A stretch of DNA of 16,048 nucleotides. It comes from a virus. Taxonomy: Duplodnaviria; Heunggongvirae; Uroviricota; Caudoviricetes. Below, piece after piece: positions 4,752 to 16,048 of the stretch. The notes under the pieces were generated by a model that had not been told where the DNA came from, did not search any database, and was given only the letters and a program-made list of their open reading frames with translations. Position numbers and translations under genes: made by a program. Numbering within the stretch: the stretch's first letter is position 1; each line of letters opens with the position of its first letter. The stretch is taken from the IMG/VR virus record IMGVR_UViG_2548876955_000010, one strand, 5' to 3'.

Positions 4752-4809
4752 AAAAACGGCGGCAGAGCAGTCACGGAGTAAAACTGATACCGCCAAACGT
4801 CACCAGAAA
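4752..4809 (-). ncRNA. dicF: DicF small regulatory RNA (ftsZ-targeting sRNA of the dicB operon)
   Basis: Minus-strand sequence TTTCTGGTGACGTTTGGCGGTATCAGTTTTACTCCGTGACTGCTCTGCCGCCGTTTTT matches the DicF sequence as I recall it, including the GGCGG/CCGCC stem and 3' U-tract. Ends are approximate. Confidence 0.85.
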
Positions 4810-8898: not shown

Positions 8899-11496
8899 AT
8901 GACACCTATAGAAAAAATCGCAAATTGGTCTAAAAATAAACCTGTCTGGTGGCGGCACTCGCTACGTCTTGCATTAAATAATGGAACATTGGAGCAAGAC
9001 GATTTCAATGAAATATTTAAGTTAGCTTGCATGGAGCATGGTTTGTTGGAGAAAAACGCACATTTTTCTGAATGTGAAAAACCGATAGATTTTACTGGCT
9101 ATGCTGCTGAACTACATGAGGTATCATTAAAATCAATTTATGACGTAAAAGGCGTTGGGATACTGGCAGAAAACCAAAAGCTCAATTTTTCTAACAATGG
9201 CCTGTTTATCGTTTATGGTGATAATGGCGCCGGAAAATCAAGCTATGCAAGCATTTTAAAAAATGCATGCTTAACCCGAGGGGATAGCCCTGCAATTATT
9301 GGGAATGTCTTTTCCAAACTGAACTTACCTCCTCAAGCAAAACTCGCTGTTTCATGTAATGGTGTGGATGAAATTCATTCATGGAATCAACAAGTATCAA
9401 GCATTGAATCATTAAAGTCTATTCGTATATTTGACAGTTCATCTGCAAGCCATTACGTAAACAAAGAAGATGCTCTGGGTTTTAAACCTGTTGGACTAAA
9501 TTTACTTACTGAGTTGGTTCGTGCCATCGGAAGTGTTAATGCTTTTATTAATGAAGATACTATGCCCGGAAATGGTCTTACTACATTGATGAAGCTACAG
9601 TCAGGCAGCGTTACCGCTAGCTTTGCCAACAATCTTTCGGCAAATACTTTTGAAGGAGACGTCGATAATCATATTGCTACTGAAGCTGACTTACAACGAA
9701 TAGAAAGTTTGAGAAGAGAAATAAATCAATACAAGTCCCAGACGGCTGAAACGATAAAAAGTGCGTTGGAACAGAATAAGAGAACCCTTTCTCCACTTAA
9801 AAGTTTTTGTGATAGTTCAATTAAATTATTAGGTAATAATGCTGTTTTAGAACTAACAAAGCTACAGGCCGAACAAGAACGAACACAACATGTTTCTGAA
9901 GAACTACGTAAAGCTACATTACAAAATCTACCTTTAGATACAGTTGCAGGTCTTAGCTGGCAGAATTTATGGAAAGCAGCTAAAAACTTTATTGAACAGG
10001 AAACACGAAAGCAAAATTTCCCGATGCAAAAAGGAGAGCCTTGCCCGCTTTGTTTGCAAGAGATTGGCTTGGAAAGTGAAAGCAGATTGGCTGCATTAGC
10101 ACAGTATTTAAGTGACGAAACGGCGCAGTCAGCAAAAATCGCAAAGTACAATGTTGATAATGCATTAAAATTATTGTCCTCACATTCTCTCGAGCTAACC
10201 CCTTACATTGCAGCTATTGAATTTCTTAATGATAAGCACCCACCTCTGGGTGATGACGTCAAAATGATGTTTGCGCTCCTAGCGGAAAGAAAGGGAAATA
10301 TGTTATTAGGTAATGTTGAAGATACACATGCTGCATTGAATACTGAATGTGTAAATCAGTTTAATAAAATCATTGAGGGTCTCGATCAAAGTATACTCAG
10401 TGTTAATTCGGATGCGGATTTTTTGCTGTTAATAAAAAGGGAAGAGATGGAGTTAGCACGACTGGAAGATATGAAATATGTGTTGGATAATAAATCCAAT
10501 ATTATTTCTAACATCAGGCGTCTCAAAATTATTAAAAAATTTGAAAATTTGCAGTCACAATGCGGAACAACATCAATTTCAACTTTGTCTTCTCAGATAA
10601 GTCGTTCTGGTGTTGTTGAGCCGTTGATTTCAGCATTTAGCGAGGAACTGCGTAATTTTGGTTTTGAACGCTTCAAAGTGAAAGTTGATACCCGAAATCG
10701 TTCTGGTGAGCAGCAGTTTAAATTATCATTGGCTGATGAAGATGATGTGACTATTGCTACACTCGGAGTTGCAAGTGAGGGGGAACAACGATGTATTGCT
10801 ATTGCCAGTTTCCTTGCCGAAATGAAGGCTGATGCAAGAAAGTCGGCCGTTATATTTGATGATCCAGTTAACTCATTAAGTCATGAGTGGAGCAGCCGGG
10901 TTGCAAGACGCCTAGCCTTAGAATCGAAAAATAGACAGGTTATTGTCTTAACTCATAATATAGTTTTTTACAAACTACTGCTGGAAGTCGCTGAAGAGAT
11001 AAATGCAGAATGCTCCTGTATTGCTCTTGAACGCTCCCGTAAACTTGCAGGCTTAGTCAGGGAGTCAGCCCCTTGGGAAGCAATGACTACGCGAAGCAGA
11101 TACAAAGAACTTAAAGTTAAACTACAAGAGCTTAAACGATTAGATAAAAGGGATGAGACAACAGTTGCTGAGTTTCGTTTGGCATCTTGTCAGTTTTACG
11201 GATTTCTACGCGAGGCTTGGGAAAGGCTTGTTGAAGAGAAGCTTCTTAATAAAGTAGTGACTCGTTTTGAAAGAGGCATCTCTACTCAGCGATTAGCTCG
11301 ATTAAAAGATATCAATCAGGATGATCTTGATAAGATTGATCGTGGAATGTCTAAATGTAGCACTTATTTTAGAGGGCATGATAGCGCGCCTGCTGTCGGT
11401 GATCCTTATCCAATGATTGCTGAAATAGAGCAGGATTTAGATGCGATTAACATATTCTTAACCGAGCTTGAGAGCCCTTCCAGAAAAAGAAATTAA
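8899..11496 (+). CDS. Large P-loop ATPase (ABC/AAA_13-like) with coiled-coil CxxC insertion and distinct C-terminal domain; candidate RloC/PrrC-like abortive-infection / anticodon-nuclease protein
   Basis: 865-aa ORF with AAGGA RBS 6 nt before ATG 8899. Walker A GDNGAGKS (nt 9217..9240). Walker B-like AVIFDDP (nt 10846..10866) followed by VLTHN. More than 500 aa between the two motifs, K/E/Q-rich with CPLC (nt 10042..10053). C-terminal about 170 aa contain LREAWE and YFRGHDS. Gene and flanks are visibly AT-rich relative to neighbouring prophage genes. Function is inference. Confidence 0.85.
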   Translation: MTPIEKIANWSKNKPVWWRHSLRLALNNGTLEQDDFNEIFKLACMEHGLLEKNAHFSECEKPIDFTGYAAELHEVSLKSIYDVKGVGILAENQKLNFSNNGLFIVYGDNGAGKSSYASILKNACLTRGDSPAIIGNVFSKLNLPPQAKLAVSCNGVDEIHSWNQQVSSIESLKSIRIFDSSSASHYVNKEDALGFKPVGLNLLTELVRAIGSVNAFINEDTMPGNGLTTLMKLQSGSVTASFANNLSANTFEGDVDNHIATEADLQRIESLRREINQYKSQTAETIKSALEQNKRTLSPLKSFCDSSIKLLGNNAVLELTKLQAEQERTQHVSEELRKATLQNLPLDTVAGLSWQNLWKAAKNFIEQETRKQNFPMQKGEPCPLCLQEIGLESESRLAALAQYLSDETAQSAKIAKYNVDNALKLLSSHSLELTPYIAAIEFLNDKHPPLGDDVKMMFALLAERKGNMLLGNVEDTHAALNTECVNQFNKIIEGLDQSILSVNSDADFLLLIKREEMELARLEDMKYVLDNKSNIISNIRRLKIIKKFENLQSQCGTTSISTLSSQISRSGVVEPLISAFSEELRNFGFERFKVKVDTRNRSGEQQFKLSLADEDDVTIATLGVASEGEQRCIAIASFLAEMKADARKSAVIFDDPVNSLSHEWSSRVARRLALESKNRQVIVLTHNIVFYKLLLEVAEEINAECSCIALERSRKLAGLVRESAPWEAMTTRSRYKELKVKLQELKRLDKRDETTVAEFRLASCQFYGFLREAWERLVEEKLLNKVVTRFERGISTQRLARLKDINQDDLDKIDRGMSKCSTYFRGHDSAPAVGDPYPMIAEIEQDLDAINIFLTELESPSRKRN

Positions 11497-11901: not shown

Positions 11902-12055
11902 TTTCATATTGGCGAGGTAAAGGTAGTTAAGTAGAATGGCTGCGGGTGCTTGAGGCTATCTGCCTCGGGCATGAACACCAAAGGCAGATAGAGAAAAGCC
12001 CCAGTTAACATTACGCGTCCTGCAAGACGCTTAATATTAATCTGAGGCCAATTTC

Positions 12056-12268
12056 ATGCTAGACACATGTAGGTTAGCCTCTTACGTGCCGGAAGGCAAG
12101 GAGAAGCAGGCTATGAAGCAGCAAAAGGCGATGTTAATCGCCCTGATCGTCATCTGTTTAACCGTCATAGTGACGGCACTGGTAACGAGGAAAGACCTCT
12201 GCGAGGTACGAATCCGAACCGGCCAGACGGAGGTCGCTGTCTTCACAGCTTACGAACCTGAGGAGTAA
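12056..12268 (+). CDS. Mok-like overlapping frame (N-terminally extended Hok, MokC-type)
   Basis: In-frame upstream ATG at 12056 gives MLDTCRLASYVPEGKEKQA + Hok; this resembles the MokC/HokC arrangement. Confidence 0.45.
   Translation: MLDTCRLASYVPEGKEKQAMKQQKAMLIALIVICLTVIVTALVTRKDLCEVRIRTGQTEVAVFTAYEPEE
12113..12268 (+). CDS. hok: Hok/Gef-family type I toxin (51 aa membrane peptide)
   Basis: MKQQKAMLIALIVICLTVIVTALVTRKDLCEVRIRTGQTEVAVFTAYEPEE carries the Hok/Gef signature (LIVIC…LVTRKDLCEV…GQTEVA…AYE). Which hok paralogue it is cannot be resolved. Confidence 0.88.
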   Translation: MKQQKAMLIALIVICLTVIVTALVTRKDLCEVRIRTGQTEVAVFTAYEPEE

Positions 12269-12802: not shown

Positions 12803-13081
12803 ATGGCACGCAACGTAAAATATTACAATTCTGATAATTCGCCCGTTCTTGCCTGCACGCACGGGCGGTATTCTCACGCATTCAAGTCTGAATGGTTCCA
12901 GCACCCTCCATGCACTGCAGAACAGGCCGAATGGCTGATTCATTCTTACCGCAGGCGCGGGTTCGAGGTTAAGAAAGCTCTCAGTCTCGACTATCGGCAC
13001 TGGATAATCTCTGTCAGGCTGCCTTATTCCGAACGCCCACCACGTGCGTCCCGCACTTTCCAGCAACGGATCTGGAGGTAA
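12803..13081 (+). CDS. Hypothetical protein (92 aa)
   Basis: GGAG about 9 nt upstream of ATG 12803. Stop TAA is 1 nt before the GTG start of the next gene (coupled). Confidence 0.6.
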   Translation: MARNVKYYNSDNSPVLACTHGRYSHAFKSEWFQHPPCTAEQAEWLIHSYRRRGFEVKKALSLDYRHWIISVRLPYSERPPRASRTFQQRIWR

Positions 13082-13082
13082 C

Positions 13083-14132
13083 GTGCGGGTATTACTTAGA
13101 CCTGTTCTGGTGCCTGAGCTTGGGCTGGTGGTCCTTAAGCCGGGCCGTGAATCCATACAGATATTTCATAATCCTCGAGTGCTGGTGGAACCGGAACCAA
13201 AAAGCATGCGTAATCTGCCATCCGGAGTCGTTCCTGCCGTTCGCCAGCCGCTGGCGGAAGACAAAACATTGCTACCGTTTTTTAGTAACGAACGGGTGAT
13301 TCGTGCTGCTGGCGGCGTTGGCGCATTGTCTGACTGGCTATTACGTCATGTTACATCCTGCCAGTGGCCTAATGGCGATTACCATCACACTGAAACAGTC
13401 ATTCACCGTTATGGTACCGGCGCAATGGTGTTGTGCTGGCACTGCGACAACCAACTGCGTGACCAGACATCGGAATCACTGGAGCTGCTTGCTCAACAAA
13501 ATCTGACAGCATGGGTGATTGACGTCATCCGTCACGCAATAAGCGGTACGCAGGAGCGGGAATTATCTTTGGCTGAATTATCCTGGTGGGCGGTCTGCAA
13601 TCAGGTGGTGGATGCACTACCTGAGGCTGTATCGCGTCGTTCGCTGGGATTACCAGCGGAAAAAATCTGCTCGGTGTACCGCGAAAGCGACATCGTACCG
13701 GGAGAGCAGACCGCCACCAGCATATTGAAACAACGCACAAAAAATCTTGCACCGTTGCCTTACGCCCACCAGCAACAAAACCCATCACAGGAAAAGACGG
13801 TGGTAAGCATCAACGTTGATCCAGAGTCTCCGGAATCTTTCATGAAGCTGCCTAAACGTCGCCGCTGGGTTAAGGAGAAATACACTCGTTGGGTTAAGAC
13901 ACAGCCGTGTGCTTGCTGCGGTATGCCAGCCGACGATCCGCATCATCTGATTGGTCACGGGCAGGGCGGAATGGGAACAAAAGCACATGATCTCTTTGTG
14001 TTGCCTTTGTGCAGAAAGCATCACAACGAGCTGCATACGGATACAGTGGCATTTGAAGAGAAGTATGGCTCCCAACTGGAGCTGATATTTCGTTTTATCG
14101 ATCGCGCGCTGGCAATTGGCGTACTGGCGTAA
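13083..14132 (+). CDS. ydfU: YdfU-like protein (DUF968-type), 349 aa, with C-terminal Cys/His cluster
   Basis: GTG start at 13083 preceded by GGAGG (13074..13078); the track ORF extends upstream to 13044 without an RBS. C-terminal CACCGMP…HHLIGHGQGG…CRKHHNELH motif. Length equals Qin YdfU (349 aa). Confidence 0.8.
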   Translation: MRVLLRPVLVPELGLVVLKPGRESIQIFHNPRVLVEPEPKSMRNLPSGVVPAVRQPLAEDKTLLPFFSNERVIRAAGGVGALSDWLLRHVTSCQWPNGDYHHTETVIHRYGTGAMVLCWHCDNQLRDQTSESLELLAQQNLTAWVIDVIRHAISGTQERELSLAELSWWAVCNQVVDALPEAVSRRSLGLPAEKICSVYRESDIVPGEQTATSILKQRTKNLAPLPYAHQQQNPSQEKTVVSINVDPESPESFMKLPKRRRWVKEKYTRWVKTQPCACCGMPADDPHHLIGHGQGGMGTKAHDLFVLPLCRKHHNELHTDTVAFEEKYGSQLELIFRFIDRALAIGVLA

Positions 14133-14145
14133 GTGGAGAACGAGC

Positions 14146-14898
14146 ATGAACCTTGAAGCCTTACCAAAATATTACTCCCCAAAATCTCCAAAATTGAGCG
14201 ATGACGCTCCAGCGACAGGCACCGGTTGTTTAACAATTACGGATGTAATGGCAGCGCAGGGGATGGTGCAGTCGAAAGCACCACTTGGGTTGGCCTTATT
14301 TCTGGCAAAAGTTGGTGTTCAGGACGCTCAGTTTGCGATTGAAGGCCTGCTAAATTACGCGATGGCACTGGATAACCCGACATTGAACAAATTGAGTGAA
14401 GAAATCCGGTTACAGATTATTCCTTACCTCGTGAATTTTGCCTTTGCTGATTACTCCAGGTCTGCGGCAAGTAAGGCTCGCTGTGAGCATTGTTCAGGTA
14501 CGGGATTTTATAATGTATTGCGCGAAGTGGTGAAACACTACAGACGCGGGGAATCTGTAATCAAGGAAGAATGGGTGAAGGAACTATGTCAGCATTGCCA
14601 TGGTAAGGGCGAAGTCAGCACAGCGTGCAGAGGGTGTAAGGGTAAAGGGATTGTTCTGGATGAAAAAAGAACCCGGTTTCATGGCGTACCGGTATATAAG
14701 ATTTGTGGGCGTTGTAATGGAAACCGGTTTAGTCGTTTACCGACCACGCTGGCACGACGTCATGTCCAGAAGCTGGTACCAGACCTGACCGATTATCAGT
14801 GGTATAAGGGGTATGCGGACGTCATTGGTAAACTGGTAACAAAGTGCTGGCAGGAAGAAGCATACGCGGAAGCGCAATTGAGGAAGGTGACGAGATAA
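14146..14898 (+). CDS. quuQ: Late-gene antiterminator Q homologue (QuuQ-like, 250 aa) with four CxxC zinc-finger-like motifs
   Basis: ATG 14146 with GGAGA RBS. Four CxxC motifs (CEHCSGTG, CQHCHGKG, CRGCKGKG, CGRCNGN), the first three CxxCxGxG. Followed by a strong promoter and terminator. Position after ydfU as in Qin. Confidence 0.82.
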   Translation: MNLEALPKYYSPKSPKLSDDAPATGTGCLTITDVMAAQGMVQSKAPLGLALFLAKVGVQDAQFAIEGLLNYAMALDNPTLNKLSEEIRLQIIPYLVNFAFADYSRSAASKARCEHCSGTGFYNVLREVVKHYRRGESVIKEEWVKELCQHCHGKGEVSTACRGCKGKGIVLDEKRTRFHGVPVYKICGRCNGNRFSRLPTTLARRHVQKLVPDLTDYQWYKGYADVIGKLVTKCWQEEAYAEAQLRKVTR

Positions 14899-14929
14899 AT
14901 GATTTTTGCTGAAGATGGCGACATGATGT

Positions 14930-14958
14930 TTGCATTTTTCAAAAAATATGGATAAAAT
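14930..14958 (+). promoter_or_regulatory. PR'-like late promoter (sigma70 -35 TTGCAT, 17-bp spacer, -10 TAAAAT)
   Basis: -35 at 14930..14935 and -10 at 14953..14958, read directly from sequence. Immediately downstream of Q and about 50 nt upstream of a strong terminator, the classic Q-utilisation layout. Confidence 0.5.
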
Positions 14959-15003
14959 TTTTTCAATGATGGGCTTTGTATACCCGACGTTAAGAAAAAG
15001 TAG

Positions 15004-15030
15004 AAAACCCGCTGATGAGCGGGTTTTGTG
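15004..15030. terminator. Bidirectional rho-independent terminator (tR'-like for the late leader; also terminates cspF)
   Basis: AAAACCCGCT-GATG-AGCGGGTTTT: 6-bp GC-rich stem flanked by an A-run upstream and T-run downstream. Confidence 0.72.
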
Positions 15031-15319
15031 CTTTAAATGGGGCAATGGTAATGTTGAATCTCATCCCGGGACTCATGTCTGTTAACTTATTATTTAGCTG
15101 GTGACTTGGTTATTTGCCTGATGTTTAAAATGTTTTCTTCCAGTACAATGTCCCTAAACACAATGAGTCTGCTTATTATATTATTAGCAGAGCTATTACG
15201 GCCAAAGTACAGCATAAGCTTTTAAAGCCAATCAACCAGTCATCAAGACAGACGGGGTTATTCATAAAAACTCTCCATGTGTGATCCGATGGGGCCTGAA
15301 ATTAAAGCTTTAATATAGC

Positions 15320-15532
15320 TCATGAAAGGTAAACATTGGCAGCTGAAGGGCCACGCAGACCATTTATCCGGCAAAATTCCACGCGTAATCCGGTGGTAAT
15401 TTCTTCTGCATCGCGGAGATTGAGCGCTGAAACATGAAGCTGGACATCGATACGACCATCGGATGGGGTGATAAGACCCTTGCCGCTTTTGCCGTCAAAG
15501 GTTTTGACAATTCCTGTCATTTTACGGGACAA
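15320..15532 (-). CDS. cspF: Cold-shock protein CspF-like (70 aa)
   Basis: [70 protein letters not shown]; cold-shock domain fold signature. Confidence 0.88.
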
Positions 15533-15832
15533 AAAAATTCCTTAATACTGATAACTTGGCGCACTATACACACGTTCCTGAAGAAAGCTATAGTTTTTTG
15601 ATGGGGTTGAAGATGGCTGGATGTCTAAAATAAACATTGCTTCATATGTTCAACTATGCGTTAATGATTGCGTCGGTTTGAAGAACAGACGATATACGAA
15701 GTAGTTTACTAAAGCAGTTCTCATTTCAGGTGTTATTCACTTATTCCTTCTTTGAGTCTCTCCAATTAAGTACGAAGTCGTTTCTGTTATGCAAACCATT
15801 TATGCCGAAAGGCTCAAGTTAAGGAATGTAGA

Positions 15833-16048
15833 ATGTCAAATAAAATGACTGGTTTAGTAAAATGGTTTAACGCTGATAAAGGTTTCGGCTTTATTTCTCC
15901 TGTTGATGGTAGTAAAGATGTGTTTGTGCATTTTTCTGCGATTCAGAATGATAATTATCGAACCTTATTTGAAGGTCAAAAGGTTACCTTCTCTATAGAG
16001 AGTGGTGCTAAAGGTCCTGCAGCAGCAAATGTCATCATTACTGATTAA
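15833..16048 (+). CDS. cspB: Cold-shock protein CspB-like (71 aa)
   Basis: [71 protein letters not shown] with RNP1-like KGFGFI and RNP2-like VFVHF motifs. Long 5' leader (about 300 nt) typical of csp genes. Stop TAA at 16046..16048. Confidence 0.9.

Follow-up and report, generated by a model that had tools for sequence, protein, structure and literature searches.

A probable PR'/tR' late-gene cassette of the lambda type in a Qin-type lambdoid prophage

The window analysed here, i.e., the whole 16,048-nt stretch of DNA of IMG/VR virus record IMGVR_UViG_2548876955_000010 (Caudoviricetes), carries close to its right end a gene for an antitermination protein (ydfT, also named quuQ), followed by a short segment with promoter-like hexamers and a hairpin. 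According to our analysis, this segment (14930-15034) is very probably the late-gene regulatory cassette of a Qin-type lambdoid prophage, made of the late promoter PR' and the terminator tR', and a homologue of the corresponding cassette of phage lambda. The first-pass annotation had read it as a lambdoid PR'/tR' module, and this reading is supported by the presence of each structural element in the lambda register. By its nature, the cassette is an ordinary textbook element; what is new is that this particular Q-lambda-type late cassette is unannotated, with no annotated feature underneath the module among the records listed. The module is carried by 1628 of 5426 complete E. coli genomes (~30%), K-12 included. 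Our tests of a late cassette follow the definition given in PMC9388147.

Several E. coli chromosomes match the window at 100% identity over 14100-16048, and their annotation successively reads ydfU, ydfT (antitermination protein), a small hypothetical gene, cspF and cspB. The same region aligns collinearly, at 99.5% identity, with Qin, a cryptic prophage of K-12 MG1655, and this alignment was used to check the coordinate conversion applied below (K-12 = 1642489-(w-14898), where w is the position in the window). The DicF and sok RNAs recognised further upstream (Table 1) are also consistent with a Qin-type prophage. Because of the identity to Qin and of these Rfam matches, we consider the window as the early-right/late junction of a Qin-type lambdoid prophage.

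Q gene, promoter and pause element

The protein encoded just upstream of the cassette matches PF03589 (E 3e-54; 181.5 bits for a cut-off of 26.7), which is named the Q-lambda family in PMC9388147, as well as DnaJ_CXXCXGXG. It aligns end to end with lambda Q (BLASTP, 33% identity, E 3e-40) and matches the lambda Q chains of PDB entries 7UBM (E 7e-36) and 4MO1. Since only 31 nt separate its stop codon from the -35 hexamer, the promoter does lie directly after a Q-like gene, as proposed at first pass, and this gene belongs to the Q-lambda family.

When compared side by side, lambda has TTGACT, the spacer TATTGAATAAAATTGGG, TAAATT, TGACTC and AACGATGGG at +1..+9, and the window has TTGCAT, the spacer TTTTCAAAAAATATGGA, TAAAAT, TTTTTC and AATGATGGG, the latter being located 6 nt past the -10. 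From the -35 to +9, 31 of the 44 positions match without any gap, including 11 of the 17 spacer positions (both counted by hand). In lambda, AACGAT (+1..+6) is a -10-like element re-bound by sigma-70, with GGG (+7..+9) as its discriminator-like partner, which results in the +16 pause required for Q loading (PMC4005639, PMC5001585), while the Q-binding element (QBE) sits between the -35 and the -10 (PMC6266700, PMC9388147). The published comparison of pR' regions of Stx prophages (PMC6266700) comes without a base-level description of the promoter type found here. A single site of the window, 14930-14973(+), fits the composite pattern TTG-N20-TANNNT-N6-AAYGATGGG, and shuffling the sequence 200 times never produced it (0/200). 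The start site is placed at A14965 because of the lambda register, and it has to be read as a predicted position.

With respect to lambda AACGATGGG, the pause element of the window is one base off, due to a C-to-T change at +3 (base 14967). The lambda form occupies the pause position in K-12 Qin, PhiR42_1, SfV, mEp460, Ayreon and an Stx2k phage, and most relatives carry AACGAT, i.e., a C at +3. AATGAT recurs in Scandinavium, in E. coli ECMA0423 and in one viral contig (L095); AAAGAT occurs in a single E. coli. As T is the consensus -10 base at this position, pausing may be slightly stronger with AATGAT.

The conservation of the cassette was evaluated on relatives collected by a search with the Q protein rather than with the DNA. 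The 17 loci so obtained, in which Q identity ranges from 100% to 40%, include seven genera outside Escherichia/Shigella and one contig labelled Veillonella, and the relatives comprise Mangrovibacter, Kosakonia, Phytobacter, Atlantibacter, Scandinavium, Buttiauxella, Entomohabitans and E. albertii. All loci but one show the matching layout. In the distant relatives, the pause element and its GGG are 89-93% identical to the window and form the best conserved alignment columns, followed by the hairpin (70-82%), the -35..-10 region (61-74%) and +10..+27 (64-72%), while identity falls to 22-36% in +28..+39 and to 24-33% in the segment after the terminator. For comparison, Q third-codon positions are 34-44% identical in the seven relatives with a 63-71% identical Q. 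Hence, the promoter, the pause element and the hairpin are conserved in relatives of at least six genera, whereas the neighbouring non-coding DNA and the Q third-codon positions are not. At the level of the hexamers, relatives have TTGCAT, TTGCAA or TTGTCA as their -35 and TAAGAT, TAGGAT, TAGTAT or TAAATT as their -10, with T51, A52 and T56 invariant in the alignment.

The spacer behaves differently from the pause element. The motif TTCAAAAA..TGG is retained in all loci with a Q identity of 63% or more, and those loci in which Q is 36-41% identical have other spacers (e.g., TTGCCGTTTTTGTGT or TTTTCCSGAAT). The spacer thus covaries with the Q clade, against a constant pause element, which is how a QBE between the -35 and the -10 should behave, and the spacer is therefore a candidate for the site to which Q would bind. 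As to +10..+27, it is kept at the above level even when Q is just 40% identical, and this region may position the pause or aid Q-dependent escape.

The scan of viral contigs, based on the pattern of the pause element plus the initial transcribed sequence, matched at least 120 contigs. Where the flank was long enough, a Q-lambda-family gene ends 43-91 nt upstream in 64 of 75 contigs (206 nt in one of them). A terminator follows in 69 of 79 copies; its end lies at +48..+66 in 67 cases and at +99 in the other two. The exceptions look like chance occurrences in unrelated contexts.

A few side observations concern the same elements. Residues ~121-168 of Q form a 48-aa insertion between both cysteine pairs of the zinc-ribbon "arm" of lambda Q, with two additional CxxCxGxG motifs (DnaJ_CXXCXGXG, 36 bits); this insertion looks like a zinc-knuckle repeat because HMMER places lambda residues 117-125 on two different copies. 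Since the lambda arm touches QBE positions 11-13 and sigma region 4 (PMC9388147), the geometry of Q loading may differ here. The 40% identical Q of one distant relative (L022) shares the feature. In the RNA of the window, +1..+27 folds as a short hairpin at the 5' end, pairing AAUG with CGUU and GGGC with CCCG (positions 7-10 with 19-22). A 51-codon TTG-start open reading frame (ORF; 14930-15085, +) was rejected as a gene, for it starts at the -35, spans the promoter, the RNA and the terminator, and matches no Pfam family; its presence as a "hypothetical protein" in the PhiR42_1 record is almost certainly an annotation artefact. Finally, the contig labelled Veillonella (L009; JAGZPX010000007.1, 22.9 kb), which is part of a metagenome-assembled genome of Veillonella parvula, encodes a Q that is 100% identical to that of the window, followed by a sequence identical to the E. 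ruysiae copy, and it most probably represents a contig of an Escherichia prophage wrongly binned with the V. parvula genome.

Terminator, short RNA and proposed switch

A strong bidirectional terminator had been announced about 50 nt after the promoter. A hairpin is indeed found 45 nt after the -10, with its end at about +63, and both strands fold: the + strand RNA 14965-15036 (72 nt) at -28.6 kcal/mol (z = -5.8) and the - strand RNA at -15.1 kcal/mol (z = -4.7). The scanner calls a terminator on the - strand only (tail CTACTTTTTC), while the + strand has a four-U run inside the extended stem, then GUGCUUU. As the K-12 Term-seq lists contain no cspF-strand 3' end at this site, the bidirectional part of the claim stands only as a statement about the sequence. 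The GenBank records of SfV and Ayreon annotate a terminator at this site. Moreover, the hairpin is present in all 14 relatives analysed for it (14/14), where it ends at +50..+68. Among 29 distinct hairpins sharing an 8-pair consensus stem, compensatory double changes affect five of the eight pairs, and only four of the 232 cells are broken.

Termination on the PR' strand can be related to published data. In the Term-seq study of K-12 by Adams et al. 2021 (PMC7815308, supplementary file 1, i.e., three growth-condition lists), position 1642356(-) is entered three times as a dominant 3' end of the "orphan" class, with the flanking sequence TACCCGACGTTAAGAAAAAGTAGAAAACCCGCTGATGAGCGGGTTTTGTGCTTTAAATGGG. 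It corresponds to C15031, 8 nt past the stem, and therefore falls as intrinsic termination predicts. Together with a start at 14965, it implies a 67-nt RNA. One of the lists includes a further "orphan" 3' end on the PR' strand at 1642188(-), i.e., ~15199(+), 168 nt beyond tR'. It is antisense to ynfS, just past an imperfect hairpin (TCTGCTTATTATATTATTAGCAGA), and may reflect readthrough or processing products.

By homology with lambda, the cassette would work as follows. RNA polymerase with sigma-70 would initiate at about A14965 from TTGCAT-17-TAAAAT, after which sigma region 2 would re-bind AATGAT and GGG (+1..+9), causing a promoter-proximal pause at about +16/+17. Without Q, transcription would terminate at the hairpin and leave an RNA of ~67 nt in the lysogen, of which the 3' end is the one measured by Term-seq in K-12. 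Upon prophage induction, Q made from the adjoining gene would bind the -35/-10 spacer and load on the paused polymerase. The modified polymerase, now terminator-resistant, would cross tR', ynfS-cspF in antisense, cspB with its terminator and ynfU, so as to reach the holin-lysozyme-spanin genes ~0.75 kb past the window.

Table 1. Features of the window bearing on the cassette, its prophage context and its cargo (positions counted from the first letter of the window).
Feature	Position	Strand	Basis or remark
DicF antisense RNA	4757-4808	-	Rfam, 72.5 bits
sok antitoxin RNA of hokD locus	11944-12118	+	Rfam, 119.1 bits
ydfT/quuQ, Q antiterminator, 250 aa	14146-14898 (stop codon 14896-14898)	+	PF03589
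PR' -35 hexamer TTGCAT	14930-14935	+	lambda register (lambda TTGACT)
17-nt spacer TTTTCAAAAAATATGGA, candidate QBE	14936-14952	+	lambda comparison, clade covariation
PR' -10 hexamer TAAAAT	14953-14958	+	scanner and alignment
Putative +1 (A14965), pause element AATGAT (+1..+6), discriminator-like GGG (+7..+9)	14965-14973	+	lambda register, conservation
Initial transcribed region +10..+27 (CTTTGTAT....CGTT)	14974-14991	+	conservation
tR' intrinsic terminator hairpin, 10 bp, 4-nt loop GAUG	15004-15027	both strands readable	folding, scanner
U-rich tract UUUUGUGCUUU	15024-15034	+	includes C15031, equivalent of the 3' end
ynfS small protein gene	15176-15265	-	translation equal to K-12 YnfS (PMC6001520); antisense to late transcript
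cspF	15320-15532	-	PF00313 CSD; antisense to late transcript
cspB with its own cspA-type 5' untranslated region (thermoregulator)	15672-16048	+	Rfam RF01766, 157.7 bits
cspB coding sequence	15833-16048	+	CSD domain, annotation; late-transcript sense

Objections and alternative readings

Several points weigh against a late-gene cassette. First, the hexamers match the consensus at just 8-9 of 12 positions, since TTGCAT-17-TAAAAT scores 3/6 + 5/6 = 8/12 with respect to TTGACA/TATAAT, and the scanner preferred TTTGCA-18-TAAAAT (9/12). The "near-consensus" of the first-pass annotation was thus overstated, even though the position it gave for the promoter is confirmed and conserved in relatives. Second, the Cappable-seq supplements are without an entry for K-12 1642422(-), the equivalent of 14965, in the coordinates of either genome version. 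Third, lambda has a -35-like TTGACT directly 5' of the pause element, to which sigma region 4 binds while Q is loaded; it is not kept in the window, which has TTTTTC instead. Fourth, the pause element differs from that of K-12 by the C-to-T change at +3. Fifth, the + strand U-tract UUUUGUGCUUU is short and interrupted, for 5-8 U in relatives. In addition, we infer Q binding, pausing and Q-dependent readthrough from homology, and as Qin is cryptic in K-12, the switch may never operate in that strain. The number of promoter-like sites in 13000-16048 does not exceed chance (7 observed for 5.2 +/- 2.3 expected), which means that the hexamers alone prove nothing. With non-significant hexamer statistics, the case rests on homology and conservation.

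Three other readings of the same segment have to be considered. The one that survives best, which we nonetheless regard as unlikely, is that the ~67-nt PR'-tR' RNA (14965-15031; K-12 1642422-1642356, -) is a constitutive, trans-acting regulatory RNA of lysogens, a role that could either add to or replace that of a by-product of the switch. The models for this are StxS and IsrK (of Gifsy-1), short RNAs constitutively made from an antitermination-controlled late promoter and ending at tR'; StxS, which RNase E releases as a 74-nt RNA from a 258-nt precursor, has proven Hfq binding and targets, and PR'-tR' RNAs of Stx phages have been proven to be Hfq-dependent small RNAs (PMC7547250). By inference, the Qin RNA would have a similar origin. 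Its 3' end is a curated, dominant "orphan" in K-12, with scores of 103,591 and 55,368 in two rows, and a node named "cspF.ydfT.IGR" does appear in a table derived from Hfq RIL-seq, but there it has a small-RNA probability of 0.0024, two partners and no stated strand. The combined fold of the 5' and terminator hairpins (z = -5.8) also suits a regulatory RNA, whereas 3' ends that bind Hfq typically have a longer U-tract. In the same way, +10..+27 is conserved more than the pause element requires, yet the constraints of pausing and Q loading also predict conservation of +1..+27. Finally, 14963-15029 gives a full-length match to Rfam isrK (RF01394), which is weak (18.8 bits, far below the gathering threshold of 50); since chance matches driven by terminators score similarly and no relative reaches the threshold, we rejected membership of this family. 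If the RNA were regulatory after all, the K-12 "orphan" 3' end would belong to an StxS-like RNA of Qin-type prophages, whose module is present in ~30% of complete E. coli genomes.

A second alternative, which appears quite unlikely to us, is that of an inactive relic, in which the dead-end RNA would still be made, with Q absent or nonfunctional and the lysis genes no longer controlled. Qin is indeed annotated as a cryptic prophage in K-12, the +3 base of the pause element differs from that of K-12 and active phages, and phage relatives have a stronger + strand U-tract. Nevertheless, the Q ORF is intact, the identical protein exists in E. ruysiae and other genomes, and the residues aligned with the lambda zinc cysteines are retained, as is the N-terminal segment. 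Furthermore, the same Q-PR'-tR'-csp-lysis region is found at 99.6% identity in the isolated phage PhiR42_1, with an equal layout in Tritos and 2H10, and in a genome that is 100% identical over 14100-16048 the prophage runs on into its terminase genes. Regarding the +3 base, AATGAT is nearer to TATAAT than AACGAT is, and other members of the family carry it.

That the hexamers arose by chance, the hairpin being a shared terminator for the convergent early-right/Q transcript and cspF-ynfS, is very improbable: the frequency of promoter-like sites, the call of the scanner on the cspF strand and the possibility that the Term-seq 3' end derives from transcripts leaving the Q gene speak for it, but it is excluded by the conservation data (in distant relatives, promoter and pause element are much more conserved than neutral positions), and faces the base-for-base alignment with lambda PR', a composite pattern absent by chance, a terminator also present in SfV, mEp460, Stx2k and E1V33, which are devoid of cspF, and K-12 lists in which the cspF strand has no 3' end at the site.

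A late-gene cassette of the lambda type remains our preferred reading. It locates the Qin-type late switch at base resolution and accounts for the K-12 Term-seq "orphan" 3' end. The current understanding of antitermination is left unchanged, while the family offers a natural example of modularity, in which the pause element recognised by the polymerase is fixed and the spacer recognised by Q varies with the Q clade.

Cargo slot and comparison with known systems

Homology with SfV, mEp460, Ayreon, the Stx2c phages and phiSTEC1575-Stx2k extends at ~90% identity from 5' of Q to exactly 15027, the final base of the hairpin, and in mEp460 and Ayreon it restarts at the equivalent of 16790, ~12 nt 5' of the holin gene. 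Given these two limits, the interval from 15028 to ~16789 (ynfS, cspF, cspB and ynfU) corresponds to the slot, located 3' of tR' and 5' of the lysis genes, in which cargo is usually carried. As stated in the first-pass annotation, cspF in antisense and cspB come next after the terminator. The suggestion that they were inserted as a pair between PR'/tR' and the late operon agrees with the mosaic breakpoints, except for the word pair, because cspF-ynfS and cspB are separable units. The presence or absence of the ynfS-cspF cassette is polymorphic independently of cspB: Escherichia sp. E1V33 lacks 15043-15594 (ynfS and cspF), whereas phage Tritos and E. ruysiae lack 15072-15329 (258 bp: ynfS and the final codons of cspF). 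The slot itself is therefore composite. Several relatives have copies of STnc100 (RF02076) in the slot, past PR'-tR' and on the strand of the late transcript (L016 3497-3693 and 4279-4479, L022 4417-4606, L023 5422-5615, L039 2629-2803 and L064 2770-2872).

The lysis genes, which the first-pass annotation expected beyond 16048, are there. In a genome 100% identical over 14100-16048, cspB is followed by essD/essQ (holin), ydfR, rrrQ (lysozyme) and rzpQ (spanin), with the gene of the large terminase subunit further downstream, and the holin and lysozyme genes are reached ~0.75 kb beyond the window. The order of the lysis genes is equal in K-12 and in three isolated phages (PhiR42_1, Tritos and 2H10).

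Elsewhere in the window, between the genes of the replication region and hokD/sok, an ORF of 865 aa (8899-11496, +) encodes an AAA_13/AAA_21 ATPase with a full-length match to the PADLOC candidate defence family PDC-S06 (1123 bits). The Qin-type prophage of strain 1190 has an FRG-domain gene at about the same site, and K-12 Qin has relBE-ydfV-flxA on the opposite side of hokD. This site appears to be a variable cargo/defence slot.

Among known systems, that of lambda (Q, PR', 6S RNA and tR') shares with the window the Q family (PF03589), the order Q, promoter, pause element, terminator and late genes, and the register -35, 17 nt, -10, 6 nt and AA(C/T)GATGGG at +1..+9. The lambda 6S RNA is ~194 nt long, whereas the terminator lies here at ~+63 and the RNA would be ~67 nt. 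Other differences from lambda are the 6 of 17 positions of the spacer (candidate QBE), the 48-aa insertion in Q and the cargo genes lying here between tR' and the holin gene.

The cassettes of the Q21 and Q82 families (e.g., that of prophage Sp9 of E. coli O157:H7 Sakai) share the logic and the position, i.e., an antiterminator gene, a promoter and a nearby terminator (PMC9388147), but their Q proteins belong to unrelated families (PF06530 and PF06323), Sp9 Q being of the DUF1133/PF06530 type, and both their QBE architecture and their pause position differ from those of Q-lambda (PMC9388147, PMC5001585). No sequence similarity was found between the Sp9 element and that of the window. In Sp9 (L028 15391-15510), the DUF1133/Q21 antiterminator is followed within ~120 nt by promoter-like hexamers and a terminator (AAGCCACCGGAAGGTGGTTTTTTT). 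HnrS is a 66-nt Hfq small RNA of the late region of Sp9, Sp10 and Sp12 (PMC13502914, 2026). Because of its size and of its place among late genes, it was considered as a possible counterpart. An identity of the RNA of the window with this RNA of enterohaemorrhagic E. coli prophages was rejected, considering that the Sp9 antiterminator is of the Q21/DUF1133 type and the downstream sequence unrelated, with no link shown.

In the modules of SfV, mEp460, Ayreon, Stx2c and phiSTEC1575-Stx2k, the spacer of the promoter is identical to that of the window and the pause element reads AACGATGGG. They differ by longer U-tracts (7 U), by the segment +20..+39 and by the cargo located after the equivalent of 15027, i.e., orf47 and a DNA methylase in SfV, the same genes plus one or two further hypothetical ORFs in mEp460 and Ayreon, and tRNAs and stx2 in the Stx2k phage, instead of the csp genes. 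In Stx2c and Stx2k phages, the ~90% identical Q-PR'-tR' unit drives the expression of Shiga toxin, so that our description of the pause element and of the candidate QBE also holds for them.

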